NCBI GenBank assembly: GCA_002269645.1
Contig: NIVC01001835.1
Span: 37,046 to 101,045 of the forward strand
Length of the DNA: 64,000 bases
DNA from: Macrostomum lignano
Taxonomy: Eukaryota
Reading direction: 5' to 3'
A model generated the notes under the pieces. It made no database searches, had not been told where the DNA came from, and saw only the letters and a list, made by a program, of their open reading frames with translations. The translations under genes and the position numbers were made by a program. Shown piece after piece: positions 4,465 to 64,000 of the stretch (within the stretch, counting starts at the first letter, position 1; every line of letters begins with the position of its first letter).

Positions 4465-17734
<13,270 letters not shown>

Positions 17735-20091: not shown

Positions 20092-24371
<4,280 letters not shown>

Positions 24372-44807: not shown

Positions 44808-45125
44808 TTAGACAACGCCGCACACCATCGTGTTGTCTCCGGTTGAGAAGGCGTCACTCTTAGTCACGCTGCCGAACTTCATCCAGCAGGTGCCGCCGTT
44901 GTAGCGGGTCCAGGCGAAGTGGGTGCAGCGGTGGGTTCGGGCGCAGGCGCCACCGCACTGCTCGCCGGGCATCCGCTCATTCTTCAGATCGCGGTTGTAG
45001 AAGTCGCAACCGAACGCCCAGTTGCCGTTCCAGCGGATGCGTCGAGCCTCTACTTGAGTTGACACGGCGCAAAGGAGACCCGCGAACACCAGTAGAACCT
45101 TCAACGAGCTGATACGGCCGGCCAT
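44808..45125 (-). CDS. Secreted single PAN/apple-domain protein (105 aa)
   Basis: ATG at 45125 starts a signal peptide (MAGRISSLKVLLVFAGLLCAVSTQVEA), then WNGNWAFGCDF...CGGAC...CTHFAW...GGTCWMK...CGVV, clearly paralogous to the N-terminal module of 47782-48750. Confidence 0.85.
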   Translation of the reverse strand: MAGRISSLKVLLVFAGLLCAVSTQVEARRIRWNGNWAFGCDFYNRDLKNERMPGEQCGGACARTHRCTHFAWTRYNGGTCWMKFGSVTKSDAFSTGDNTMVCGVV

Positions 45126-47781: not shown

Positions 47782-48750
47782 TCAGTCGTCATCTCGCCTG
47801 CAGCCGCTGATAGCGACGAGAGCGTCCGGGCAGCGGACCCTCGAGTACACCATGGCGGGGTTGTCGGCCCCCCTGAACCAGTCGAATCGCCAGTAGCAGC
47901 CGTCGCGAATTTGCGCCGGCAGAGAGCCGCACTCGCTCCGTCTCGACACTCCGCCGTAGCGCTGGCCCCAGCCGTCTGGCCCCGCGTTCCACTGCGCGCT
48001 GCAGCCGTTGAAAATGCCGACACCGCCGCCTGGGATTTGCAAGTCGAACTGGTTCGGGTGCACGTCGCCTCCGCTGTTGGTGACCTGCACCACCATGGAT
48101 TTTCCCTGCACAGGGCCGTTGGTGAAGTCCAGCTTGTAGCAGGCGCAGCAGCGACCGCTCTCGTCCAGACCGGGGATGGTGGCGGCGGCGAAGCCGTAGG
48201 CCAGCTGGTCGCTCACCGCCCACGGCTTGTTGTTGTTGCAGGCGAACACGGGTCCGCCGTTGCAGCCGCTGGCACCGTTGGGATCGCTGGTCACTCCGTA
48301 GCCGTCGCGATAGCAGGCGCGCACGTATTTGTTATGGCCGGGCACTTTGCCTGGCCAGGAACAGCTGGGCTTGCAGCAGTCCCAGTAGCGGGTGGTGAAT
48401 CCTGGCACCTTGTTGCCTCCGCCGCCACCGCCGCCCCCGTTGTCTTCAATAACTCCGCACACCATGGTCATGTCACCAGTTGGGAAGGCATCGCTCTTTG
48501 ACACGCTACCTCGCTTCATCCAGCAGGTGCCACCATTGTGTTGAGTCCAGGTGAAATGGGTGCAGCCCTGAGTGTTGGCGCACCTTCCGCCGCACTGCTC
48601 TGAAGGGATTCGCACGTTCGACAAGTCGTTGTTACGAAAGTCGCAGCCATGCGCCCAGTTGTTGCCATTCCAGTTGATGTTGGCCAAGACGGAGCTTGAG
48701 CACAGGACCAGTACTGCAGCCACTAGTAGGCAGCTGTGTCTTAGCGCCAT
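47782..48750 (-). CDS. Secreted PAN/apple + GH45 (subfamily A-type) endo-beta-1,4-glucanase, intronless, 322 aa
   Basis: Signal peptide, PAN module, poly-Gly linker, GH45 signature TTRYWDCCKPSC, YGFAAA, CCACYKLDF, MVVQVTNSG, QFDLQIPGGGVGIFNGC, WGQRYGG, GCYWRFDWF; both catalytic Asp present. Confidence 0.95.
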   Translation of the reverse strand: MALRHSCLLVAAVLVLCSSSVLANINWNGNNWAHGCDFRNNDLSNVRIPSEQCGGRCANTQGCTHFTWTQHNGGTCWMKRGSVSKSDAFPTGDMTMVCGVIEDNGGGGGGGGNKVPGFTTRYWDCCKPSCSWPGKVPGHNKYVRACYRDGYGVTSDPNGASGCNGGPVFACNNNKPWAVSDQLAYGFAAATIPGLDESGRCCACYKLDFTNGPVQGKSMVVQVTNSGGDVHPNQFDLQIPGGGVGIFNGCSAQWNAGPDGWGQRYGGVSRRSECGSLPAQIRDGCYWRFDWFRGADNPAMVYSRVRCPDALVAISGCRRDDD

Positions 48751-48864: not shown

Positions 48865-49029
48865 GATTGATTGGACTAAAGCTATGCCTGCTGGATCGGT
48901 AGAGTGATTGGACTAAAGCTATGCCTGCTGGATCGGTAGAGTGATTGGACTAAAGCTATGCCTGCTGGATCGGTAGAGTGATTAGACTAAAGCTATGCCT
49001 GCTGGATCGGTAGAGTGATTGGACTAAAG
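48865..49029. repeat. 37-bp tandem repeat (TTGGACTAAAGCTATGCCTGCTGGATCGGTAGAGTGA)
   Basis: Period 48871 to 48908; about 4 copies. Confidence 0.9.
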
Positions 49030-49074
49030 TAGAAGGCATGAGGGGGCTTCTGGGACAAAATTTTTCACCTCCTC

Positions 49075-49282
49075 CATAATCCCATTAAATCCATCCATAT
49101 TATCCCTGACAGAATCAGAAAAAAAGGGGGGTCGCACTCGCTCCGAAAACGTCCTCCATAATCCACCTAAATCCATCCATATTATCCCCGACAGAATCAG
49201 AAAAAAAGGGGGGTCGCACTCGCTCACAAAACGTCCTCCATAATCCCATTAAATCCATCCATATTATCCCTGACAGAATCAG
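49075..49282. repeat. 82-bp subterminal tandem repeat (2.5 copies), possibly part of the viral TIR
   Basis: CATAATCC...ATATTATCCC...AGAATCAG at 49075, 49157 and 49239. Confidence 0.8.
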
Positions 49283-49482
49283 AGCAGGTGTCCACTGATA
49301 CCTGTTATGTTCACTGACACTGACATCCACCCATAACATTTCTAAAACAATCAGAAAATAATCTGCATTCTTCTCCCCATGGGGCCCACATTCAATCCGC
49401 AACGTGCTACCACATCCCAAAGACTTTAAATCATCAGCGCAGGGTCCTTACCCTTTGAAAAAAAATTAAATTCTCAATAAAA

Positions 49483-49725
49483 ATGTTTCCAGTTGTCTCT
49501 CCGGGTTCTTATTACAAAGCGGACGAGCCTAATTACAAGAGCAAGTACCGATGCAAACTTGAATGCAGCGAGTACATGAGAAAATATTGGCCTGACGTTG
49601 ATATCAATGTCCCTAATATTAATCAAGCTCTCCAAAGACACTGGTTTCATAAGTATGGAGTAACCTATGTAAAAGATTACGATAGCTATTATAACTTTGC
49701 AGAAGTTATAAGGCAGTTGCGTTAA
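49483..49725 (+). CDS. 80-aa Tyr-rich ORF of unknown function, probably viral
   Basis: TAAAAATG start context like the other viral ORFs; no motif recognised. Confidence 0.55.
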   Translation: MFPVVSPGSYYKADEPNYKSKYRCKLECSEYMRKYWPDVDINVPNINQALQRHWFHKYGVTYVKDYDSYYNFAEVIRQLR

Positions 49726-49729
49726 AAAA

Positions 49730-49825
49730 CCGAAAAACCAAAAGGCCAAAAGGCCAAAAGGCCAAAAAGGCCAAAAAGGCCAAAAGGCCAAAAAGGCCAA
49801 AAGGCCAAAAAGGCCAAAAGGCCGA
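49730..49825. repeat. (AAAAGGCC/AAAAAGGCC)n simple repeat
   Basis: Directly visible. Confidence 0.9.
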
Positions 49826-49875
49826 AATCGTTTGCATTTTGGCCTTCCCTCGAGACGGAATTCTTCCTCGGCTGG

Positions 49876-49933
49876 GCTCAGTCATAGAAATCTAGAATAC
49901 TAACGTTAGTATTCTAGATTTCTATGGCTCAGT
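49876..49933. other. 44-bp perfect palindrome (49883-49926) flanked by a 7-bp direct repeat GCTCAGT
   Basis: CATAGAAATCTAGAATACTAAC-GTTAGTATTCTAGATTTCTATG, with GCTCAGT at 49876-49882 and 49927-49933. Confidence 0.9.
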
Positions 49934-50118
49934 TAAAGTGAAAATCTCTCTCCCCCACGCGCGCTGCGCCCACACACATACACTCCCCTCTCCCCCGCGC
50001 ACCCGACGCCCGCGCCCACAAACTGTCAGAATGGGGTAAGAGATTTTGAGTACACATGCGCGCATTTTTTCATACCACTCTATTCTCTGCAAGCATACTT
50101 AAAAGGGAACGCATTTTC

Positions 50119-50720
50119 TCACATTCTCTCAATGATCAACGTCAATACAAACTCTTCACCGTTGAAATCAACACCCACCCCATCTTCAGTCTCAAACTGT
50201 AGCACAATCTCGTGAATCTCCTTATTACTCAATACAACTCTTTTCACTGGATTTGGTTTCTCTACCACCATCTGTCCTCCAGCTACAGAGTTGGAGATGT
50301 TGTACAAAATATTAGTTCGCTTTCCCTTAAATACCCAATCAAGACTGAGATTAGTTCTGATTAGAATATTCAAACCCTTTACAATGTCTGCTATATTGGG
50401 TGCTAAGAACAAACCGCGTACACTTTCCCGGGCCATGATAACGGCCCCCGTCGCTTGAGTGGCGGTCCGCGCCGCGGATTCTGCCTTATAAACTTTCTTC
50501 TCGAATCCTAATTCCCTATACCAAGTGTCATCTTTAAACTCAACCTCCGCATTTTTGTGAACTTGCATGACCACTCTCATTACAGTGAGATCATAGGATA
50601 GTTTGACAGGGAACAGTTTTTTATCTGGCTTACTCGCATCAGGTGTCTCAAAATGGCCTCTTTTAGTAAAAACGTTTTCTAGAAAGTAATTGTAGGTATC
50701 CACACTTTGCGTGCTAACAG
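50119..50720 (-). pseudogene. Minor capsid protein (penton), C-terminal part; split by transposon
   Basis: Joins in frame with 54022-53761 after removing the insertion and one TSD copy (..AEPVVFP/VSTQSVDTYNYF..). C-terminus NILIRTNL...NILYNISNSV.GGQMVVEKPNP...IHEIVLQFETEDG..VDFNGEEFVLTLII has the penton-type pattern. Confidence 0.8.
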
Positions 50721-50725
50721 GGAAT

Positions 50726-53700
50726 CACAGTGTATTTCTATGGTAAGATTTTTTGAAAAAATGGCCAATCAAGATTTTTACTATCATTAATAGATCACAT
50801 TTTTCTAGAGAGGAAGCCACAATATTAAAAAAATCTGTCGAGCGGTTGCTGAGTAACTACTGTTTTTCTGTTTTTCATGCTGTTTCATGCTGTTTTCATT
50901 TTTTTGCTTTGATACAGGCTATAATAGGCAAATTGGTATCAAAAACGTTATTCAATGTTTTTCTTTCAACATTAATAAATTATATTATTAGTATAAATTT
51001 AAAGAATGCTTGTACAATATAAAAACTTTCAGCTTGAAACGTAGTTGTACAATGTCAATATAAATTACACATTAGGAGTGAAAACAATGTCAAAGTCCAC
51101 ACTGACTACATGTCCTACACATGTCGGCTATTATAATGATGCACAGCCTGAAGCAAACGACTTCCAAAGCTGGGATTTTCTACATCCTTGACCTTGAAGT
51201 TCGCCCATAGCTGCTGAAAGTCGTGGTGCACTGCTTCAGATGCCTGTTCACTCCAGGGACCAAGTCCTCGCTGTTGCATCAAACAGAACTGTGGCACATG
51301 ATGCAGCACTGTGTGAACTTTCGGTGTCACTGAGATCCCGAGGTCCATGAACGCCACTTGAAAATCAGTGATCGTCTGCTGGAAATTGGAGGCCAGTTCA
51401 TTGCCAAAGCAGCTGGACACAACAAGCCTGAAGCAGCGCAGTGCAGCAACGTACGGCAAGCACTGTAGCGGGCACATCGATGCCAGAGCATCAACATTCT
51501 GCAGGAGCACTTTGCAGCTGTTGCCGGTAAAACTGCCTCCGTGAATTGCCTCCCTGGCGACGTGGCAGTGATGCAGCCATCTGTCACACTCTGGCCACAC
51601 TGACTGCATACTACAGTAAATGGTATTTACTACTCCAGTTAGCAGGTGCAGTTCAGGCGGTGGTACAATTTCTAGGACCATTGTTGAGGCTGGGAAATTT
51701 TCTAGAAGACAGGGACGTACCACATTTCCAAAATTCTTGGCAGCTGCAAGCTTAGAGCCAGAAGCCTGGAAGTTTGCATGGCTGTCTTCGAGAAGCTTCA
51801 GTGTGCGATCTGTGCCCTTCTGCAATAGCTTATTCTTGTGGGCATCGCACCAGCAGCAGGGATGAGCAGCACTGTGAGCCATAAGCCCAAGCAGCATGTT
51901 GCACAGCTTCAAGTCGCTAGCGATGGTAAATTTGCCTTGAAGACTGCTCAGTCCAGCTGCCCTCCACAGCAACTCCAGGTTCTGGTAATTTTCTTGAATA
52001 GCTGGTGCGATGGCTACAATAAGAATTCGTTTAACACCGGAGTGCTTTAGCCGACTGCTGCGAGAGTTGCTGCTACAGGCTGCCTGCGAAGGCTCAGTGG
52101 AGTCAACACACCAACTGGAATCAAACACAGACAGGCAGATCTTGAAGAACCCACCACCTCCATCAATGCCAACCTTAATCATACAGGTCGATGGGTTCAG
52201 TTGTCTTTCTTGAATAATTCGCTCGAGAAGCTGCTGAATGCGCACACAAATAACAGCTGGACGTGATGTTACTTCTGTCACAACTCCTCGCTCCATGTTG
52301 ACGAAGTCCAACTGTTGTAGTTCAAAAAAGCTGTCGAGCTGGTGGTGAATGTCAGACAGCTTTTGTTGGAGGTACGACTCTACAGCTGTTTTTGAACCCG
52401 ACGCTGCTCTAATATGGTGAGCCAGCTTCAGCATAGAGCGCGTGCTGAGGCCCATATCCTGCTGAATGCTCACCATGCTGCTGACGCTCAGCTGCTGTGG
52501 TTGCTTCGGCGTACTCTGAGATGGTGGCTCCACTTCCATGTAAAAGCTTTCTGCATTATGTGCCCTTGTAGCAGGAGTACAGACATGTGACTTGCCTCGA
52601 TTTAGCTGCGAGAGGCACTTCACACAGAGCTTCATGCTGACTGGGCGTCGAGTTTTTGACACAGTGCTGGCAGTGGGCTTGCAACCAATCCTACTTTGAC
52701 TGTCAGCGCTTGGCCTTCCTTGTGGTCGCCGATTAACTGCTGCTGGATGTCCAAAGTTTGCGGAGCTTTCTCTGGCAGCCTGACACACAATACAGTTGCA
52801 TCGAGTAGCTGCTCGGCTTCGTGTTTGAGGAGGCTGGGCTCCAATCTTAGAGTGGTCGAAGTTGGGCAGCGAGGACGAAAAGTTTCCTTTCTCGTACTCT
52901 AGCAGCGTTATCCTGCATTTTGTGCACAGAGCACTTGGTAGCCGATTGTCCTGCGTATCGTAGCCATGCATCTTGAACTCTGAGATGAGTGACTGCATGT
53001 GCTCATTTATCCGGCGTATTTCCTTGCCCTTATGCATGCAGATGAGGCAGACGATGAGACGAGCATCTTCGTGCGTTCTGGCACTGCTGCTTTTACTCAT
53101 AATGCCTGACACTGAGCGTGCTTGGTGTCGATTAAGAAAGGTGCTACACAACAAATCTGATATGTAATGAGACGCAGAGATTGTGCAATGAATATAAAAA
53201 CTTCTCTGGTTAGATTAAAGTGAAATCAATCGATAAGAGCGACTTATATATATTCATTGATTGCTGAGCAGACGAGTTTTTAGCTCAGCAAACTTGTGTG
53301 CATTGCGCACTGTATAGCACACTATTTGATTGAGTAATAGATGAGTGACTGCGTTCTTCAACTCCAAATCATGCACACGCAGTCTCCCCTCAATAGAGAA
53401 GTAGTACAGTTAGTACAAAACCCATTTGTTACATTCAATCACAATTGTACCCTGTATTTTTGGAACATTCATTTTGATTAGCATATGAAATGTGTGTAAA
53501 AAACAGCCTATTTGTTGGCTAAACAAATGGACCTTAAGCTTATAAGTGATTTTCTGTTTGAACTAGAAAAACAAAAACAAATAACACGAAACAGCATAAA
53601 ACAGCATTAAAAACAGAAAAACAGTAGTTTCTTAGCAACTGCTTGATGGATTTTTTAAAGTCTTGTAGCATTCTCTCTGGACATACATGATCTATTGATG

Positions 53701-53760
53701 ATAGTAAAAATCTGGGGTGGCCATTTTTTTCAAAAAATGTCACCATAGAAATACACTGTG
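50726..53760 (-). mobile_element. 3035-bp RAG1/Transib-like DNA transposon with CACAGTG termini and 5-bp TSD GGAAT
   Basis: GGAAT at 50721-50725 and 53761-53765; both ends start CACAGTGTATTTCTATGGT (19 nt identical); imperfect TIR similarity extends to ~50900 and ~53585. Confidence 0.95.
51115..53100 (-). CDS. DDE transposase with RAG1/Transib-like core and N-terminal Chapa/RAG1-like zinc module (661 aa from ATG 53100)
   Basis: GIDGGG (D, cf. RAG1 D600), ASDLK...GL...CCWC (D, cf. GYDEK...GL...CTLC), ELHLLTG, FTGNSC, KVHTVLHHV (HxxxxH), GPWSEQASEAVH (E, cf. E962). N-terminus H-x7-C-x2-C...LP-x3-C-x2-C...CxC-x2-C. No stops or frameshifts. Confidence 0.88.
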   Translation of the reverse strand: MSKSSSARTHEDARLIVCLICMHKGKEIRRINEHMQSLISEFKMHGYDTQDNRLPSALCTKCRITLLEYEKGNFSSSLPNFDHSKIGAQPPQTRSRAATRCNCIVCQAARESSANFGHPAAVNRRPQGRPSADSQSRIGCKPTASTVSKTRRPVSMKLCVKCLSQLNRGKSHVCTPATRAHNAESFYMEVEPPSQSTPKQPQQLSVSSMVSIQQDMGLSTRSMLKLAHHIRAASGSKTAVESYLQQKLSDIHHQLDSFFELQQLDFVNMERGVVTEVTSRPAVICVRIQQLLERIIQERQLNPSTCMIKVGIDGGGGFFKICLSVFDSSWCVDSTEPSQAACSSNSRSSRLKHSGVKRILIVAIAPAIQENYQNLELLWRAAGLSSLQGKFTIASDLKLCNMLLGLMAHSAAHPCCWCDAHKNKLLQKGTDRTLKLLEDSHANFQASGSKLAAAKNFGNVVRPCLLENFPASTMVLEIVPPPELHLLTGVVNTIYCSMQSVWPECDRWLHHCHVAREAIHGGSFTGNSCKVLLQNVDALASMCPLQCLPYVAALRCFRLVVSSCFGNELASNFQQTITDFQVAFMDLGISVTPKVHTVLHHVPQFCLMQQRGLGPWSEQASEAVHHDFQQLWANFKVKDVENPSFGSRLLQAVHHYNSRHV

Positions 53761-54022
53761 GGAATACCACAGGTTCTGCTGCTGCACCTTTCCATTTGTA
53801 ATAAAACTTATTATTTGCTGCCGACACATTGGGAACGTTTGACCAACCAGTGAAGTCGTTAAGATAGACATGATAATTAGCACCTGGATCCAGGCTAATC
53901 GCCTGCTCTAATTTTTGAATAAATATCCCGTTTGAGTCATTAATTCGCCCAGTTATTGTAATAGGAATGCTCTCCTTGGAGTGCGAAATAATATTATTTA
54001 GTCTTTCAGCAATCGCTTCCAT
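53761..54022 (-). pseudogene. Minor capsid protein (penton), N-terminal part
   Basis: MEAIAERL...LEQAISLDPG..YHVYLNDFTGWSNVPNVSAANNKFYY, a penton-type N-terminal pattern; reconstructed length 287 aa; directly downstream of MCP. Confidence 0.8.
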
Positions 54023-54044
54023 TTTTCCACCCACAAAAAAATAT

Positions 54045-55331
54045 TTAAACTTTACTGGATGAATTGTTGATCATGTTAAGCTTCACCTTCCTCTCAAATG
54101 CATAGATAATGTACAAGTCCACGGGTGTTGCGTCAGTCCTCTCAATGTTAGTCACGATATTCACAGGGCTGTTATCAGTAGGCATTTGTCTGGCAGACAC
54201 ATCAGCGCCAAACATTGGATATAGAGTTCCATATTGAAGAGCTGTGATAGCAATTCCGTTGTTCTCTTTCACAGCCAAGTCGACCAACTCGCTGTAAAAT
54301 TTGCTAATCTTGTTCTGACTGAAATTTCCATTTTGTGGCAGTGCAGGGTAAAGATTATCACTGATTTCATGCTGAATGGACCGCACGTCTCCATGCATGT
54401 AGCGTATAATGCTATTTGGGTTTCTCATGCTAATAATAATATACCTTGGATTGCTGCATGATCCCTCTTTGATGCAGATGTTTGTTCTAGTTTCGTTTCG
54501 CTCATCTCGACACATGTAGGCTGTGTATGCAACATCAATGTCCTTCTCTATTGCCTTAAGATAATCTGCTTTTAGTGCAGTCTTTGGCTCAATGACTTCC
54601 AAATACAGCTCGATTCCGGTTAGCTTCACCTCCATCCTAGTGTGGTCCGCCCCAGTCCACAACACTCTACTGCGATCATCTCTAGTCATCTTAAAGGTGT
54701 AGCTAAAGTTACTAGTCAGTCGATTAAATGTATTACAGAATCCACTCATAAATCTCAGTGGTACAAATACATCAACAGACCGATACAGCGGGTTTTTAGC
54801 AGCATCATCAGCACCTTGCAATGCATAGTTGTATCTCTTCTTCCTCTTTTTATAGCCACTGTCATTGATGTCTCCTTCTTTTTCATCTGCAATAAAACCC
54901 GCACCGCTTCCCAACTGAATAAAATCAGGATTCTCGATCAAACAATGAGCGTCATAGACAATTCCAAAGTTGGCGATTCGCTCCAACTCAGTGCTCCCAT
55001 TCGATACACTAAACTCCTTGAACATGTACGCCCAAAAGTTACTGATCAGAGCCACATCCGCATCATGCTTGTCAACGTTAGCACGAGCCGCATCCGCACC
55101 ACCTTTTGTCTTGAATTGAAATGTCATATGGAAGCCGCTCTTAAAACTGTGCACACTAACCAAAGACGAACATCCATTGTATGTGAATGTCAGTGTTTGG
55201 CCAGGACCAAGATTAGTTTCATTCTGATTTTCCTGACTGGGAACTCTTACCTGAGTCGCTTTGATTGTGCTATCATCACTCAAAATAGGCTTGTTAATTT
55301 TGTAGAAAACTGGTGTCAGTGGGTCGTTCAT
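54045..55331 (-). CDS. Double-jelly-roll major capsid protein (428 aa), intact
   Basis: Size, position between penton and ATPase cluster, and pattern SDDSTIK...LISNFWAYMFKE...LERIANFG...VFVPLRFMSGFC...PRYIIISM...FGADVS fit Polinton/adintovirus MCPs. Confidence 0.8.
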   Translation of the reverse strand: MNDPLTPVFYKINKPILSDDSTIKATQVRVPSQENQNETNLGPGQTLTFTYNGCSSLVSVHSFKSGFHMTFQFKTKGGADAARANVDKHDADVALISNFWAYMFKEFSVSNGSTELERIANFGIVYDAHCLIENPDFIQLGSGAGFIADEKEGDINDSGYKKRKKRYNYALQGADDAAKNPLYRSVDVFVPLRFMSGFCNTFNRLTSNFSYTFKMTRDDRSRVLWTGADHTRMEVKLTGIELYLEVIEPKTALKADYLKAIEKDIDVAYTAYMCRDERNETRTNICIKEGSCSNPRYIIISMRNPNSIIRYMHGDVRSIQHEISDNLYPALPQNGNFSQNKISKFYSELVDLAVKENNGIAITALQYGTLYPMFGADVSARQMPTDNSPVNIVTNIERTDATPVDLYIIYAFERKVKLNMINNSSSKV

Positions 55332-55362
55332 TTTTTTAACTAAAAATAAAATAAAATAAGAA

Positions 55363-56574
55363 ATGAAGCGAAAAAGTACACAGCAGATATCTGAATTGGA
55401 GAAGCTAGCACAAGCAGAGAAACGAGTTACCGGGCTAATAAATAAGGAGCAACAATCCTACAATGAGTTTGTCCAAGCAGCTACAGAGTTTCATAAACCC
55501 GGGTATGGAGAAGCTAAGAAAAATATTGATCAGGTCAAAGAAACTATCGACGACATACAGGAAACCCAGGTGCAAAAGGCTTTGGGCAAAATTCCAGAAG
55601 CACCACAGATACAGCCGCAACTACAACAATCACAACCACAACAACCACAACCACAACAACAGCAACTAAAAGTGACAGATAACATTTTTGGACCAGTAGA
55701 GCGTGTAGAACATGATGGGAAATATATATTTGGAATAAGTATGTGGAGAAAAAATATTTATAATGAACCAGTGGAATATTATATCGACATAAATAAGAAA
55801 CATATTTCTGTTGTCAAAGGCTCGGAAACTAAGAGCATTCCTTTCACAGAAACCTTACTGAATTTTATGACCAAGAACCAAGAGAGAATCTCGGACAAAC
55901 AGCTAAAGAACTACAGAGATCTAGTGATTTTTTCTCTTGCTAGAGATATAGAAATACTAAAGGTCCCAGAAGTTCTGAAACACATGTACGATGGCGGTGT
56001 CAACCTGACTAATTTCAAAAAGTACAAGCACTTTAAACAATGGTTTGGTTTGCCAGATCAGGGGGAAGTCATTGATCAGATGAAATATCTAGAACAACAA
56101 CAGCAACCGCCACAACAGCAGCAACATTCCACAGAAGAACAAGTACTTAGTCAACTCGAGCAGTTAGACCCTTTGAAAGTAGCTGAATATAAAAATGATC
56201 ACCCAGATGCCTGGCAACTCTTAGAACAACACTCTCCAGATCGAATGAACAGAATCAAGCAAAGAGTTTTCACACCTCAACAAAGACAGGCGCCACATGA
56301 CAGTTCCATCTCTGAAAGTGAGCAGTCTTTTGCATCACCTCCCCAGCAGCCACAAGCCCAACCAACTCCACAACCTCAAGACCAACCGCCTTCAACTGGA
56401 AAAGGAATAGCTGAAATCTACAAGCGAGTAGCGGTTCTTCTAGGAGCAGCAAAGACCGGAATGAAAGATGAGAATAGAAAAGAGTTCGTTCACATCCTCA
56501 ATAAAATGCTTGAGAGAAAATACATCGATAAGAGGGCGAGAGAGCTTCTGCTTTCACGGTTCAACAAAAAATAA
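55363..56574 (+). CDS. 403-aa viral protein (coiled N-terminus, Q/P-rich linkers, C-terminal GKG...RVAVLLGAAKTG...E...IL helix), function unknown
   Basis: Long intact ORF; the C-terminal motif resembles a recurrent Polinton accessory gene (recalled pattern, not searched). Confidence 0.7.
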   Translation: MKRKSTQQISELEKLAQAEKRVTGLINKEQQSYNEFVQAATEFHKPGYGEAKKNIDQVKETIDDIQETQVQKALGKIPEAPQIQPQLQQSQPQQPQPQQQQLKVTDNIFGPVERVEHDGKYIFGISMWRKNIYNEPVEYYIDINKKHISVVKGSETKSIPFTETLLNFMTKNQERISDKQLKNYRDLVIFSLARDIEILKVPEVLKHMYDGGVNLTNFKKYKHFKQWFGLPDQGEVIDQMKYLEQQQQPPQQQQHSTEEQVLSQLEQLDPLKVAEYKNDHPDAWQLLEQHSPDRMNRIKQRVFTPQQRQAPHDSSISESEQSFASPPQQPQAQPTPQPQDQPPSTGKGIAEIYKRVAVLLGAAKTGMKDENRKEFVHILNKMLERKYIDKRARELLLSRFNKK

Positions 56575-56590
56575 TTTATTTCAAGTAAAA

Positions 56591-56968
56591 ATGCCACTTA
56601 TTTTCGAAAAAGACATTGACAAATACTATGACAAAGAGGAACTTAATCTCATTAAACGCGGATCTGGACTTTTCCCTGCAGGCCACTATCCAAGAAAAGA
56701 ACGCTCAGGGAACGGTCTTGCCGATTTGATCGCTCAGGGGGCCAAGATTTTTAAGGTCATTGGAGAGAACAAAGAGAACATCAAGAACGTTGCCGAAGCG
56801 GCTGGCAGTGTAGCCACAGCAGCCAAAAAGATAAAGGATACTGTAACACCTAAACAAGAGATTCAACCGCTGGCTCCGCTGGCCCCAAATCCAGACAATG
56901 TGGACCCTGCAGTCTATGAGAAGATGAGAGCTAGCATTAAAAAGGGAAGCGGTTTCAAATTTGACTAA
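56591..56968 (+). CDS. 125-aa basic protein with repeated GxG motifs; candidate protease-processed core protein
   Basis: ATG 56591 in AAAAATG context; RGSGLF, SGNGLA, KGSGFK motifs. Confidence 0.65.
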   Translation: MPLIFEKDIDKYYDKEELNLIKRGSGLFPAGHYPRKERSGNGLADLIAQGAKIFKVIGENKENIKNVAEAAGSVATAAKKIKDTVTPKQEIQPLAPLAPNPDNVDPAVYEKMRASIKKGSGFKFD

Positions 56969-57011
56969 AGGGTACTTTTCAAGGGTACAAGACATGTAAG
57001 AGTATAAGACT

Positions 57012-57110
57012 AGTCCCAAAATGACACATCTAAGTCCCAAAATGACACATCTAAGTCCCAAAATGACACATCTAAGTCCCAAAACGACACATTCAAGTCC
57101 CGAAATGACA
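57012..57110. repeat. 21-bp tandem repeat (AGTCCCAAAATGACACATCTA) upstream of the ATPase
   Basis: About 4.5 copies, directly visible. Confidence 0.85.
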
Positions 57111-57160
57111 CATCTTCTAAATGATTTATTATTTAAATTTTTTTTCAATCATAGAAAAAA

Positions 57161-57960
57161 ATGGACTTCTCAAACGACTTCAATCCTCACTGGACGCGTA
57201 ATCAGATTAAGTTTTCTCATCACGAGTCAATCCCGAGTCACTTCAGATGCATTGTTGTTGGTTCATCAGGTTCAGGTAAAACATTCAGAGTCTTTAACAT
57301 GCTTCTTAGACCTGGCTTTATCGACTATGACACTCTGCACATCTACTCTCCCACACTGTATCAAGATGAGTATAGAATGCTGATTGCAGGGCTTCAAAAC
57401 AAGCTGAACAAAGAGGACATTATTGCATGTTTTAATAACCAACAAATCCTTCCCAGCAACCCAGAAATTGTAGCTGCCGAATATGCAAAGCACCTCAAAG
57501 ACAATGAAAAATGGCAGAACATTAAAGTGTTCACCTATGGAGATCCACAGGCTGATCCAAAGACCAAACTTCTACCCCAACCAGATGAGCTAGAAAAGGG
57601 AGAAAGCATTTGATCGTCTTTGATGATTGTATGACAGGCCCACAGAAGCAGATAGAAAACTATTTTACAAGAGGGCGACATAACAATTGTAATGTAATTT
57701 ACATTGCACAGAACTGGTTCGAGCTCCCGAACAAAACAATTCGTGGGAACTGCAATCTGATTCTCCTGTTTCCAACCATTCCACAGGATAGGCTAAAACG
57801 ATTTTACAATGAGGTCATTGCGCCTGCCTATTTCATAAATCCAACAAAAAACTCAAGCAGAAAGATTTCACAAGAGGAATTCGTTAATCTTTGCTATGAC
57901 AAGTGGAACCAACCCTATCAGTTTGTCATGATCAACAAGGAAAAAAGAACTGTAATTTAA
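57161..57960 (+). pseudogene. A32/FtsK-HerA family genome-packaging ATPase, split by one frameshift at ~57603
   Basis: Walker A VVGSSGSGKT, Walker B LIVFDD, FTRGRH, IYIAQ, IRGN. Adding one A to GAAAG gives ...GEKHLIVFDD; may be intact in vivo. Confidence 0.9.
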
Positions 57961-57976
57961 AATTTGCTAATAAAAG

Positions 57977-58795
57977 ATGTCTATTAATTTTGCAGGTGAA
58001 TCCATTTCTGGCAACAGCGCTCTTACATCAGCTCAAATATCCATCCTTGACATGCGATATATCAACAGCGACGAAAAGATCCCAGAGATCAAACTGAATA
58101 AAAACAGACTGAAAGCCCTGGAGCGCTCCATGCACCAGTTACAAATAAACATGGAAGATCTCAGGCTTAAAGTAGCTAGGCAGAAGTTTGAAAGTGATAA
58201 GCTTTATGTGCCGTTGTTAAACGCAACTAATGAACTTAGGTCAGAAATAACTTCGGCAGTCTCGCAAATCAACAGCTTAAGATCGACAGTTAATCTTCTG
58301 GGAAATTCCACTGATAGACGGATGCGTATTCTTGAAGGAGGAGTTTTCACAAACACAGCTAAAGTGAATAATTTAGAAGAGTTCATGAACCAGTCAACAG
58401 CGTTGCATGATAGAATTAAAGAAAACGTCGCAACCAACACAGTTAAAGTAAATAATTTAGAAGAGTTCATGAACCAGTCAACAGCGTTGCATGATCGAAT
58501 CAAAGAAAGACTTGAAGCATTAGAGAGAAGCGATGTATCACACAGTAGCTATCTAAACGGAGTGTATAGCTCTTGGGGTAAAATACTAAGGAGGCTTGAT
58601 CGTCTGGAGAGAACACTCAATCTTCGTGATATTGCTATTGATGAAGCAGAATCTACTGCTCGTCCGGTCATGTCTACAGATCGAGTAGAAGGAGCTCTGG
58701 ACCCCGCCGGAGTAATCCGGCACGCTCTCAAACGTCAGCCGCCCAGCCGCTGCCTGCTGGACTCGCGATCCTCCGGCGTCACGAGAGCCGCCTAG
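57977..58795 (+). CDS. 272-aa coiled-coil viral protein with a 28-aa tandem duplication
   Basis: Intact ORF; 84-nt repeat (58367 vs 58451). Confidence 0.65.
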   Translation: MSINFAGESISGNSALTSAQISILDMRYINSDEKIPEIKLNKNRLKALERSMHQLQINMEDLRLKVARQKFESDKLYVPLLNATNELRSEITSAVSQINSLRSTVNLLGNSTDRRMRILEGGVFTNTAKVNNLEEFMNQSTALHDRIKENVATNTVKVNNLEEFMNQSTALHDRIKERLEALERSDVSHSSYLNGVYSSWGKILRRLDRLERTLNLRDIAIDEAESTARPVMSTDRVEGALDPAGVIRHALKRQPPSRCLLDSRSSGVTRAA

Positions 58796-58886
58796 ACAAC
58801 CGGCGGTGCAGATGGAATTATCAAAAAGAAAACAGATCTTTCAACCGGGTAGTTTTGTAATTTTTTTATTTTTTCTAGAGAAAAAA

Positions 58887-59618
58887 ATGGCCCAACAAAA
58901 TTCTCTATACGATCAGTCTCAATACGTTGAACCTAAAATACCGACAGCACCAAACCCAATGGCACCGAATTCGAACACACAAAGCCTGAATGCACCGAAT
59001 CTGAATGCACCTCAATATGAGCAACAAAAACTCTACCCCGTCATTACTTGTAACTCTCAGCAGTTTCGACTAGTGGAGATTCAAAAAATGCGAGATGATC
59101 TTGAAAAAAATATTTTCCACAACACAAAGAAAATTAAGCGCTATGACAGCCACTGTAAATTTTTCGACTACAGCAATATGATTCTAGGATCTGTGTGTGT
59201 TCTAACTGGGTCTGCTGCAGCTGTCTCAGTGTTGCCAGTCATCACAGCCCCAATCGCAATCCCGCTCGGCTCTGCTGGTGCTGCATGTGGACTTATTTCA
59301 GCAATTACTGGAGCATTAGCGCGAAACAGGCGAAAAAAACTAAAGCAGCTACAGGAGAAGCAAGTAAAAGAGAAAGGGGTGCACACATCAATCATAGGGT
59401 ACATTTCAAGGGCAATCGAGGATAAGTTCATTTCAGAGGATGAGTTCAAAACCATTCAGGATCTTTATGAACAAACAATTCGAATGAACTTGAACATGGT
59501 CGGTACTGATGACATGAGTCAGCTGAGAAATGAACTCGAGAAATTTCTTCAACATTATGTGGAAAGAAAGTCGGCAAGAAATTCGGCAAGAAGGACAACG
59601 AGAAATACACCACAATGA
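58887..59618 (+). CDS. Viral membrane-associated protein (FRL..I coil, hydrophobic hairpin, ..ED.FISEDEF.. tail), 243 aa
   Basis: ATG 58887 in AAAAAAATG context; two Gly/Ala-rich hydrophobic segments followed by a basic RNRRKK stretch. Confidence 0.7.
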   Translation: MAQQNSLYDQSQYVEPKIPTAPNPMAPNSNTQSLNAPNLNAPQYEQQKLYPVITCNSQQFRLVEIQKMRDDLEKNIFHNTKKIKRYDSHCKFFDYSNMILGSVCVLTGSAAAVSVLPVITAPIAIPLGSAGAACGLISAITGALARNRRKKLKQLQEKQVKEKGVHTSIIGYISRAIEDKFISEDEFKTIQDLYEQTIRMNLNMVGTDDMSQLRNELEKFLQHYVERKSARNSARRTTRNTPQ

Positions 59619-59622
59619 ACCC

Positions 59623-60046
59623 CTATGAAACACAGCCAAGAATAATTTCCTTGTAGGTCTTTCGTGTTTTGGTCATTGCATACAAAACAGTCATGCACAG
59701 CTCACCGCAAATATCACTGCTAAGACCTTGGAGAATAAAGTCTGAGCGATAAATTTTTTTATTATTTTTTCCCTTCATATAATTTCTTAGCTCTTCTGGT
59801 ACTGCCGTCCCATAGCTATCGAAGTAATAACACTTGTGCTTGCGATCGGGATCAATCACCCAGCAAACCCAATGAGATCCTGGCTTATCGGTGGTGTCAA
59901 AGTTCATGATGAACTTCCTTTCTTTCCTTTCCTTTCCTTTCCTTTCTTAGAGGAAAATCAGGCAGAGTGTCCCTCATAAATATTCCTCTAAAGTTTGGGA
60001 TTTCCAGTTCGTTAGCCAAATCTTCAAGAAAGTTATTTGTCGTCAT
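59623..60046 (-). pseudogene. Adenain-like (adenovirus/Ulp1-type) cysteine maturation protease, frameshifted in an (AAAGG)n tract
   Basis: N-part MTTNNFLEDLANELEIPNFRGIFMRDTLP; C-part NFD...GSHWVC...YYFDSYG...LQ...ICGELC (H/D/Q/C catalytic set). Confidence 0.88.
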
Positions 60047-60140
60047 TTTTATGAGGTTTATTAAACTTTCTCTTAAACCTAAACCCAATCTCCTAATCTC
60101 CTAATCTACAGTGCCCGAGTCTAACCTCCAGTGCCCGAAT

Positions 60141-63100
60141 CTAACTCCCACCTCCTAAACCTAACCTCCAATGCCCGAACGGTAGACTGTTAATATTGTC
60201 ATCAAAAATGAATCTTTTATTATCTGCACCTGACAGTCCAATCTTTTTTTGCTGAATTGTGTGAATAATATGGTTTTTGGATTGTAGCTTTGAGAACTCA
60301 TGTGATGTCTTTTTGTTGCAATTCAAGGCGTCTCTGTATTCAGCTTCATTAATTTCCTTCCTAACCACGCGTTTCGGAATTCCCTTTGATTTTTTAATTG
60401 GGTCTGACGACTCACATTTTACAAAATAGGACTTTGCTCTCAACCCAATGAATTCAGTGATTATGTCACCAGCAATCTCGTCCTTCATTTTCCCAATCAC
60501 TTTCTTGTTAGTGGCGTCAAACACTTGATCGCCATTCTGTGTCCTGAAAGATTCATCATACTCAGACAAGTCAAACAAATATTTTTGCTGCAGCATGTCC
60601 TGATAAATGTCTTCTGTTTGAATGTCCATAATAAAACTGTCTGTGTCAGTGTACAAGAGTTTTATTTTATCCTTGTACTGCTGCTTCATGTCATAGAAGA
60701 ACTGGTACATCAGACGTTTTGATTCGTCGAGAACAGTGACACCTGTATAGATCGGCTTGCGCAGCGTCACCTTGGTTTTGTAAAATATGATCACACCTAA
60801 GTAGCTATTAAAGATATGGAGTTCTTTGAATGTTGGCTTTGACATATTTGCCTGAATAACAGCAGGCTCTGATGAGGTAACAAGTTTCAGGTTTGTTCTT
60901 TTCCGCTCATTCTCAAGAGTCTTGCCATAGACAGAGTTGTTGGCCAACTTAAAGAGGTTCTTGTCAAAGTCGTTGGTTGCTTTGGTCCTAAACTGGGTGT
61001 TCTTATCAATGTAGGGTTTCATCCACGCTTCCTCTGTAAATGTAAGAGCCCGGTGAACTTTAGTGACCCTGCAACCAAGTGAGATAAAATACTGAAGCAG
61101 TTTGTAATGGATTTTGTAACGTGTCTTGTTGTTTAGATTCTGTGTTAGTTTCTCTGTATGTTCTTTTTCTGTTCCTGACAGGTGCCAAGTTCCATTATTA
61201 TCATTGGGAGTTTCGATTATTTTCGGGCACTTGATGTTCTCTGGGAAGGGTGGAAAGTCAGAGAAATAGTCGTGAAGCTCTGGTGGAATGTAAACATCAA
61301 CCTCATAAATGGCAGCCAATGAAAAGTCCCACTTTAGTTCTGATGAGGGTAGCCATCGAAAATCTCTAACTGGAAGATCTTGACTCATCGCCCAACCGTA
61401 GAGATTATTAGCGTCCAAGTAAGTAATGTAGTTTGAGGGTTGCTCCTTATTGTAAGATTCAATGTAGGGATTGTTTGCTTTTGCATACCTGTTAACGCAA
61501 ATTGAGATCCCCCCTCGTTTTGACGATTCGACAAAATTGTACATGTCAATGTCTGTAAGAAGTTCAATGTACCAATCTGGATCTTGATCCATTTCATTTT
61601 AAGCAAAGATTCCCAGCTAGTGGCAGGCAGAGACACATAATGTGCTGGATCGAGGCCATATGCTGTGTACCAGGTGTATCTGAAGGTTTCAAACACATCG
61701 GCCAGCAGAAACACATCTGTGAAGAGGTAAAGCAGGTGATACTGGAAGAAGTTTTGACAATTAAAGTAATTATAGACATGCTTCGCGTGCTCATAGTCTT
61801 TGTCAGAGATTCCAGAGTCTGTTAGCTTTGAAAAGAACTTCTCCTGTGGTGGTAAACCTTCTTCAAATACGTGATACCCAGTAATATTTTCATAGGGGTA
61901 GAAGCCTTTCTTTCTTAAAAGTTTAAATGATTCATCAGTGTTGTTAATTTTACTTGCAAACATCTTTGTATATGTACATTGTTCATCTTTTAGATTCTTG
62001 CTTAGTTCGTCTAGACTGGCAGCTAGAAATTGATATGAATCCTTCAGTCTTATTTTACCTGTACCCGAATTATCCTGTTTAATATCAACACACTTAAACT
62101 TCTCCTTGTTCTCTGCGATGCAATCAAGGTGTATGTCTGGAATCATGCCGATTTTTTCAACTATTAAATGCATGTCATAGTTCTTTGCGTTGTGACAAAA
62201 TATCGTTAGATCATGAATGTTCAATTTTAGCTTTAGATTACAGGTGTTATGCGCTGCGCCTCTAAATTTCCCAGTAAAGTGGCAGTGGTCCCTAACGGTG
62301 GGGTTTTTTAAATCAGTGCAAGTTAAATGTTTCCTGCAGATGTGGCAATGAGTTGCTGATAGGAAATTGCTTTCATCCTCCTCAGACATATCTTATTGGA
62401 ACAGGTTGAAGGTGCTAATCACTTTTGCACTCTAACATTCTGGCAATAAACTGCTCCACACACTGCTCTCCAAAGAAATAATTATACTCAACAAGTCCTT
62501 TTGTATTAATAAAGGCATATGCTACTGAATTGGGGACATGTTTTTGTGTTTGAGTTTGTTTTTGTGTTTCCGGCATGATTGAGCATTCGAAATCAGCATA
62601 TACAACAAATGGGAGCTTCTCCATCTTGTGATAGTTCTTAAACGAAGATACTTCTCTTCAGCTGAAGGAAGAGAGCAGTTTGTTGGGTGATCCTCGCATG
62701 ATAATTCATGCTCTACTAGTTTTTTTAAACGCTCAGGTCCACTGTAATGCTTAAGGCACAAGCGGCAGATGGCAACAGCCTCGTGATGATTATTCAACTG
62801 TTTGTGAATGAGTCTTGAAAGATCTTTAATCCAAACATAGTGAGCCTCCTCTAGTAAATTACCAATCACTAGAAGATCCACTTCAGTCCGCCTTTTCCCT
62901 CGGATCTAAAACGTCTTTGCTACATCTGACCGGTTGAACTTTCTCAGTTTTTTCACTCCACTCAAAGACTGTGATTCTAATTTTGTTATTAAACACTTCT
63001 TCTAGCTTTGGGATTTGAGAGATCGCCAAACCTCCTTTGTCAAACCTGATTCCCTTCTTTTCGCATTCGATGAGATAGTAGTTGAAATAATTTTGATAAT

Positions 63101-63969
63101 TTGAGGTTCTTTCGGGGTGCGAGGTACACTATCATAAAGAAGTGCAGAAAGAACTGCCCATAGAGCACAGCAATTGTCTTTATTTTTAACATTTATGCAA
63201 GCTTTTTTGCCGGCAAGCTTGTGTGGGAGCTCTATATAAGAGGAGGCTTTAAGTGGGTCATATTTCATGACCATGACAGTCGCTCTTTGAATCCCTCCTA
63301 CGACCCATCCGGAACCTCTGGATGTAAACGCTTCAATTTTCTTATTGACATCTTGTAAGGAAAGGATCCAGTCTGTCTGTAGGGGTGAATGGCTTTGCCT
63401 TTGTTGTCATGTAATACTCGAGATGCTCAGTGGGTTTTGCAGGCATATAAAATGCAATCTTGAATGATATCTGTAGTTTAAAGGTCTTGCGTGTTTTGAG
63501 TGTGTGATCAACAACTGATTGGATGCTGTCTTTATAGTCGTAGATGTTTGCGGTGTATCCTTAATTGGGATTGTGTACTCTATGTAATGTTCTGTAAACT
63601 TCCTCTGTGCAAAATTAATCTCTTCAATGGCAAGCTCCGACTCTTTTAAATGAATTAATTGCTTTAATTTCTCTTGTTCCTGCTTATTTTGTGGGTACTT
63701 TGCTTTTTCACCAGTGAGAGTTTCGTATTTGTTAATTAAGTTGCGACTCCTCTCTTGGTGTTCCTTTGCAGGATTTTTTATAGGCGCGCATACTGGTTGG
63801 ATTTAATTGATTGATGATTTCCAACTGTTTTTCATAGCTTCCAGGTGACCAGGTCGTGTTAAACTTTTGCTTGCACGCTTTTCTTAGTAAATTACTTTTG
63901 TCTTGAAATGAGACGCCTTTTGAAAAATATTTGTTGACTAAATCTTTTTGCTGGATTAGCTTTTGGCAT
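60141..63969 (-). pseudogene. polB: Protein-primed family B DNA polymerase (TP/OTU-like N-region, exonuclease with endonuclease-VII-like insertion, polymerase), multiple frameshifts
   Basis: SRGSGW, SYIELP...INVKNKDNCCALWAV, HYVWIKDLSRL, VYADFEC, CHIC...VRDHCHFTGKFRGAAHNTCN, HNAKNYD, YLFTDVFLLADVFETFR, YLDANNLYGWAMSQ, KLANNSVYGK, YTDTDS. Putative ATG at 63969. Confidence 0.95.
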
Positions 63970-64000
63970 TTTTTTTCTATAAAATAAAAAAAAATTTTGA

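Follow-up and report, generated by a model that had tools for sequence, protein, structure and literature searches.

A 64,000-nucleotide stretch of the free-living flatworm Macrostomum lignano (contig NIVC01001835.1, positions 37,046 to 101,045 of the forward strand; the whole stretch is called the window below) carries a virus-like element from position 49028 to beyond its end. This element is very probably an integrated copy of an alpha-type Polinton/adintovirus belonging to a young, high-copy family, which likely spread by way of free linear genomes, capsids and re-integration, the window copy having later been hit in its likely penton gene by a Chapaev-type DNA transposon.

The 5' edge of the element was placed exactly at position 49028, inside a host minisatellite, and the right end was located past position 64000. 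The features at the left edge are:
48868..49027, no strand: host 37-bp minisatellite, the array of which resumes past the right terminal inverted repeat (TIR).
49022..49027, plus strand: left copy of the 6-bp target site duplication (TSD), GACTAA; the identical six bases stand directly after the right TIR.
49028..49269, plus strand: left TIR of at least 242 nucleotides, starting AGTAG and containing 82-bp repeats.

The two TIRs are 99.2% identical over 242 nucleotides (one substitution and one indel in 240), and the copy measures 19,733 bases from 49028 to the end of the right TIR, the length of the part between the window end and the right TIR agreeing with that in sister copies. Because a TIR pair is present, GACTAA stands at both ends and the minisatellite lies on both sides, the element is integrated in host DNA. 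The first-pass annotation of the window had described an endogenous element and had predicted a right TIR and a 6-bp TSD beyond 64000, and all of this was confirmed. Among the short-read contigs listed, none bridged the junctions of host and TIR or of penton gene and transposon.

The terminal 22-mer of the element has 346 exact occurrences in the genome (control, 0). Among candidate matches to the gene of the major capsid protein (MCP), 98 of 676 were scored, all being 97-100% identical and 95 without a stop; 88 of 1,370 candidates were scored for the polymerase pPolB, and 117 of 1,619 (90-100% identical) for the integrase. Some of these places are one insertion present on two contigs, so that distinct sites are fewer than the counts. 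Counted with haplotype duplicates, this single young family is represented by at least about 170 element-equivalents, and its close copies number well over a hundred. When contig depths from a DNA run were added up, the sum was several hundred times that of the neighbouring host gene, a figure that is not a copy number. A 6-bp TSD was present at 8 of the 10 paired ends examined (two of them one insertion), and five sisters in which both ends were located and a 6-bp TSD was seen were 15.5-16.4 kb long. TIR pairs differed by 0-21 substitutions over 240-700 nucleotides (three or fewer in five of eight pairs). The earlier description of a young provirus in a little-studied host also stands. Beyond pPolB, sisters carry an open reading frame (ORF) with a pX domain (Adeno_PX, E 4.3e-7), an rve integrase (E 6.2e-9), a PLA2 ORF (E 9e-14) and a variable slot, PLA2 and pX being two separate ORFs.

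The genes of the window copy, apart from the nested transposon, are:
49483..49725, plus strand: 80-amino-acid (aa) ORF (ORF80), without family match; in several sisters also found near the far end, inside a longer TIR.
50119..50725, minus strand: 3' part of the likely penton gene, residues ~87-287 of the sisters' 287-aa ORF (99% identical to the sister ORF).
53761..54022, minus strand: 5' part of the likely penton gene, by comparison with the sister ORF.
54045..55331, minus strand: MCP with a predicted double jelly roll, 428 aa, unbroken ORF (PF21738, E 2.7e-5, under the curated cut-off).
55363..56574, plus strand: 403-aa Gln/Pro-rich ORF (ORF403), without usable match; an allele about 18% divergent occurs in some sisters.
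56591..56968, plus strand: 125-aa basic ORF (ORF125) with three G-x-G motifs, without family match.
57161..57960, plus strand: A32/FtsK-like packaging ATPase in two frames, broken near 57600 (the 266-aa ORF of a sister matches PF04665 at E 3.6e-6).
57977..58795, plus strand: 272-aa coiled-coil-like ORF (ORF272) with an 84-bp repeat; weak coiled-coil-type matches only.
58887..59618, plus strand: 243-aa ORF (ORF243) containing a PTAP motif together with a long hydrophobic segment, described from sequence features.
59623..60046, minus strand: adenain-type cysteine protease in two frames, broken in a TTCCT repeat near 59915-59946 (the 133-aa ORF of a sister matches PF00770 at E 5.9e-5).
60141..63969, minus strand: pPolB with a vOTU region and an endonuclease-VII-like insert, in about ten frame pieces (PF03175, E 2.7e-8, and PF02945, E 0.0013, in one piece).

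The capsid assignment was examined by structure prediction. From a single sequence, AlphaFold2 gave a pLDDT of 31.8, and the model built from a 110-row alignment was used instead (pLDDT 94.4, pTM 0.91). Foldseek searches with this model returned PBCV-1 Vp54 (E 2.9e-18) and the Sputnik MCP (TMq 0.65), as well as iridovirus and mavirus capsids. The protein is thus predicted with high confidence to be a double-jelly-roll capsid protein; the first-pass call, which hung on this fold, is upheld by the model. Nine sequence relatives at 43-77% identity had no informative names, the next were at most 31% identical, and adintovirus entries in BFVD resemble the MCP at only about 10% identity; judged by these values, the M. 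lignano capsid is a distinct lineage. No MCP relative was found in scans of viral or metagenome contigs, which were short-pattern searches and therefore weak.

The Pfam cut-offs for PF04665 and PF00770 were exceeded on sister ORFs, the window ATPase and protease being frameshifted, and PF03175 matched one window pPolB piece but failed to match the long frame of a sister. In the vOTU region, called by sequence, the motifs bearing Cys and His align with the PolB of Corynactis coral adintovirus and were found in window pPolB pieces. Of the gene content proposed earlier, the MCP, the A32-like ATPase, the adenain-like protease and the pPolB with GSGW/vOTU region and endonuclease-VII-like insert were retained, and the penton and core labels come from position, size and motifs. 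The 287-aa ORF is a likely penton (minor capsid) gene by its position beside the MCP, its size and a C-terminal motif (no relevant match in Pfam, PDB, PHROG or NCBIfam), and ORF125, by position and motifs, is a candidate core protein and protease substrate. ORF243 is possibly membrane-active; its Atlas look-alikes, at 0.93, are hypothetical proteins and constitute weak evidence. Family and profile searches gave no usable function match for ORF80, ORF403, ORF125, ORF272 or ORF243, and one of the four ORFs first left unassigned may be the 661-aa transposase of the nested Chapaev-type element, which is not viral. The morphogenesis module, first called complete, is not intact in this copy: the penton candidate is split by the transposon, ATPase and protease are frameshifted, and pPolB lies in about ten pieces.

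Pairwise ratios of non-synonymous to synonymous differences (pN/pS) among copies were 0.08 for the MCP (20 rows), 0.22 for the penton candidate (15), 0.13 for the ATPase (11), 0.21 for the protease (11), 0.21 for the integrase (4), 0.15 for the pPolB C-terminus (10) and 0.29 for pX (two). In copies chosen on pPolB, the MCP ratio was 0.10 (seven near rows) and, for a second allele, 0.09 (four rows). Alleles of the MCP found in single copies showed 33 synonymous and 18 non-synonymous changes (normalised ratio 0.14); since these are mostly synonymous, the differences among copies represent variation filtered before insertion and not later decay. The capsid genes of the family are under purifying selection.

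The second MCP/penton allele (L068, L069, L075, L079 and also L078) is about 79% identical in nucleotides, and 82-83% in amino acids in three full-length cases. Its MCP is spaced as expected from polymerases that are at least 95% identical to the window pPolB in their C-terminal part, and second alleles of the ATPase (about 20% divergent) and of ORF403 (about 18%) were also seen. Matched in this way by distance to the polymerase, the alleles suggest that capsid modules may have been exchanged between lineages. A fold-back derivative of about 11.3 kb (L043:1605 to L044:6933, the same insertion being present in L045/L046, that is, two contigs and one event) contains the series TIR-penton-MCP-ORF403-core twice, in mirror image around one ATPase, with arms 99.9% identical over 1.9 kb. 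It has a clean 6-bp TSD and no pPolB, protease or integrase, and therefore points to integration of defective genomes in trans; in structure it resembles a snap-back defective genome that entered the chromosome in this way.

Further variation was observed among the copies. In the slot between PLA2 and the far TIR (L006, L014, L050, L052, L054) small ORFs differ from copy to copy; two of the types (131 and 214 aa) are distantly homologous to each other (27.5%, E 3e-7), and no family match was obtained for them. A retrotransposon with gag-protease, reverse transcriptase, RNase H and integrase domains lies within one Polinton copy (L003:5791-9692), a primase-D5 helicase ORF lies beside another (L010:6165-8171), and the end of one Polinton was found inside the protease gene of another (L047:9151).

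With regard to classification, many animal Polinton polymerases are 40-46% identical to the C-terminal 769 residues of the long pPolB frame of a sister. That frame is 35% identical over 1,203 columns to the PolB of Corynactis coral adintovirus, which is listed as Alpha in Fig. S2 (panel A) of PMC8502044; no other named adintovirus was among the 120 best pPolB matches. This closest named adintovirus polymerase and the PLA2 of the sisters support an alpha type for the M. lignano Polinton, in line with the first assignment. The marker invoked for it, an OTU-bearing PolB taken as diagnostic of alpha-adintoviruses and group 1 Polintons, is not supported by section 3.1 of PMC8502044, which has OTU in the PolB of both Alpha and Beta; there, Alpha is placed together with Polinton group 2, and Beta with group 1, so that the group 1 label is not sustained either, group names varying between authors. 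HNH and VSR inserts are described in nematode pPolBs (bioRxiv 10.1101/2023.08.22.554363), which does not settle the grouping here.

The family shares with the Alpha adintoviruses of PMC8502044 an OTU-bearing PolB, an rve integrase, an FtsK-like ATPase, adenain, a double-jelly-roll capsid, PLA2 and TIRs. It differs in that PLA2 and pX are separate genes in the sisters, whereas a fused PLA2X is described there, and in its divergent MCP, among the sequence matches of which there was no named reference hexon to link it with the Mayetiola-class capsid cluster of Alpha adintoviruses. The host phylum does not appear in the main text of that paper or in the searched part of its supplement. With the vertebrate Mavericks of PMC8097293 it has in common 6-bp TSDs, TIRs, intronless genes and purifying selection on morphogenesis genes. 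Copy numbers there have a median of 8 and a maximum of about 290, the high-copy cases all being defective, compared with at least about 170 element-equivalents in M. lignano, and omega was 0.001-0.0001, compared with a pN/pS of about 0.1 here, the method and time scale being different.

The recent amplification of the family was likely capsid-dependent, with the element travelling as virus particles. In such a cycle, pPolB would prime replication at the TIRs via its terminal-protein domain and would be processed by the vOTU; the ATPase would fill capsids built of the double-jelly-roll MCP and the penton, and adenain would mature the core proteins (the Polinton biology behind these steps is given in PMC11161782 and PMC8097293). 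PLA2 and pX would assist entry, a role set out in section 3.2 of PMC8502044, and the integrase would re-integrate free linear genomes, making the 6-bp TSD. The window copy would be unable to make a whole penton, and could still be copied or packaged with the help of sisters.

Several points weigh against this account. Virions and free linear genomes are predictions drawn from the genome sequence; the alpha label follows from closest matches; and the integrase is known from sisters, not from the window copy itself. A pPolB frame of at least 1,250 codons was present in only four of the 88 scored matches, one of them with an internal stop, and most assembled copies look broken. The main pN/pS set consisted of unbroken ORFs in copies chosen on the MCP; among 20 stretches chosen on pPolB, 12 had an MCP, eight had none where it was expected, and one MCP row with many breaks (19 indels) was excluded from the pPolB-chosen values. 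The purifying selection on the capsid may also be inherited from an outside virus population or kept up by complementation, and gives no date for the last virion. Coverage by runs guessed to be RNA is nearly even across the element, TIR and spacers included, a pattern that DNA carry-over of a high-copy family could yield and that was taken neither for nor against expression.

The same data could be read as those of an intracellular 'self-synthesizing transposon', excised in germ cells, replicated by pPolB and re-integrated without virions, in which case the capsid conservation would reflect a recent burst from a diverse pool. The very high copy number fits such a route, as do defective copies integrated with clean 6-bp TSDs (the fold-back copy, for example, as integration in trans) and, weakly, the lack of MCP relatives in the contig scans. 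However, the MCP has the lowest pN/pS of the genes tested, also in single-copy alleles and in the second capsid allele, and PMC8097293 takes purifying selection on Maverick morphogenesis genes as evidence of virions and of re-infection, an argument made for fish Mavericks. The intracellular route is therefore regarded as unlikely, and spread as virus particles is preferred. A stronger proposition, that M. lignano carries a currently productive adintovirus, with virions in laboratory worms, capsid-module swaps (two MCP/penton alleles about 79% alike) and fold-back genomes integrated in trans, is possible and is put forward tentatively.

The breaks in pPolB, which are concentrated in its last 2 kb, probably represent, for the most part, consensus errors near the end of the readable sequence. 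The first 8.2 kb held nine frame-changing indels private to the window copy, and the 2 kb before the readable sequence ends held 14 (seven of these in the final 500 bases), whereas private substitutions rose only from about 8 to about 12 per kb across the same regions. Between two contigs that represent one insertion, seven indels were counted over 8.4 kb and 12 over 6.8 kb (about 1-2 per kb), almost all of a single base, and similar patchy bursts of 1-bp indels occur in sister copies. The crowding of indels with little change in substitutions, the contig-pair differences and the bursts in sisters are the grounds for this interpretation. True decay of pPolB, ATPase and protease, which would make the window copy an older fossil, is in keeping with the later transposon insertion in this copy, and private mutations are compatible with the short-read contigs, which also miss the private substitutions of the window copy. 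The indel pattern just described and the single substitution between the window TIRs in 240 nucleotides speak against it, and it is held to be improbable. A programmed frameshift or intron shared by the pPolB genes was rejected, as the breaks vary among copies and a single long frame is found in some of them.

The transposon that interrupts the 287-codon penton candidate of the window copy was overlooked in the first-pass annotation and has the following parts:
50726..53760, minus strand: Chapaev-type (CMC) DNA transposon of 3035 bp with CACAGTG...CACTGTG ends, imperfect TIRs of about 170 nucleotides and a 5-bp duplication.
51115..53100, minus strand: 661-aa transposase; zinc finger of Cys/His type at the N-terminus (Chapa-like), and a DDE-type core with the motifs C(2)C, LH and H(4)H.

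The insert was missing from all 34 sister stretches spanning its site, and it therefore arrived after integration of the Polinton. Nine other copies of the transposon, at five independent sites, were 98.7-99.1% identical in nucleotides to the window element, and ten transposase copies, the window one included, were 98-100% identical in amino acids. All nine had a 4-bp TSD, as did eight of 11 copies of related Chapaev-like families (by eye); the 5 bp at the window site may be a duplication peculiar to that site or may come from a one-base error within a run of G. In a 60-sequence alignment, core residues C415/C418, L484/H485 and H596/H601 were conserved, as were H10, C18, C21, C59, C62, C101, C103 and C106 in the N-terminus, which, judged from this pattern, is probably homologous to the Chapa domain. 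The CAC/GTG ends, the three motifs (C(2)C, LH, H(4)H), the N-terminal zinc finger and the 4-bp TSD of the family are the reasons why the nested element is judged to fit Chapaev (PMC4079192, bioRxiv 10.64898/2026.01.24.700457, PMC4411706), a placement by published hallmarks. An artefactual insertion is unlikely, given its duplication. The CACAGTG ends, which equal the heptamer of a recombination signal sequence (RSS), the Cys/His-rich N-terminus, if read as a zinc finger of RAG1 type, and the 5-bp duplication at the window site, 5 bp being the rule in the Transib family, could instead be those of a Transib/RAG-like 'missing link' in place of an ordinary Chapaev element. Against this, the 4-bp TSDs of the nine other copies and of most related-family copies, and the CAC/GTG ends, are Chapaev hallmarks (TSDs of 3-4 bp; PMC4079192, which also gives the motifs seen in the window element), PDB sequence searches with the protein or the 60-row profile matched neither RAG1 nor Transib, and the 3-kb element has no RAG2-like ORF. 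A RAG/Transib identity was accordingly rejected on the 4-bp family TSD and the PDB searches, and is considered highly improbable. Several further Chapaev-like families are present in the genome (L023-L042), at 35-46% amino-acid identity to the nested transposase; many of them have open frames and TIRs.

The left part of the window (1-44500) is host DNA rich in minisatellites. The gene nearest the Polinton is:
47782..48750, minus strand: intronless host gene for a secreted PAN + GH45 cellulase (PF02015, E 2.2e-73; PF14295, E 4.1e-6).

The Polinton lies about 280 bp upstream of the start of this gene and may influence its expression, and a PAN-only gene (44808-45125) is its neighbour. Exon-like ORFs presumably resemble pieces of PDZ-domain (11009-14635), fibrinogen-domain (64-480) and lipid-kinase (20604-20999) genes. 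Within the element, a hairpin with 28-bp arms lies near the left end (49877-49932) and a 21-bp repeat upstream of the ATPase (57012-57115). GGNCC occurs 20 times (19.6 expected), and no Rfam match was found in the window or in 14 sister stretches; GGNCC avoidance and a group I intron were rejected for this family on these results.

Polinton-type insertions in flatworms have been reported, Macrostomum not being named in the main text (bioRxiv 10.1101/2025.04.19.649669). No description of this M. lignano family was found in the literature searched (Repbase and subscription journals lay outside its scope, and the supplements of the bioRxiv paper may list it). According to the abstract of PMC8097293, Polinton particles have not been observed, and one unpublished co-purification is offered in PMC8502044; animal Polinton virions are still inferred, not seen. 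Taken alone, the window locus is an ordinary damaged provirus, and the family, which is large, young and under selection, is the more interesting part. M. lignano is a transparent, easily cultured worm. A young family of more than 100 copies, with selected capsid genes and defective derivatives, in a culturable worm makes the virion question testable by observation. If a productive adintovirus is indeed present, the missing Polinton virion and its life cycle could be studied in M. lignano as a whole-animal model.

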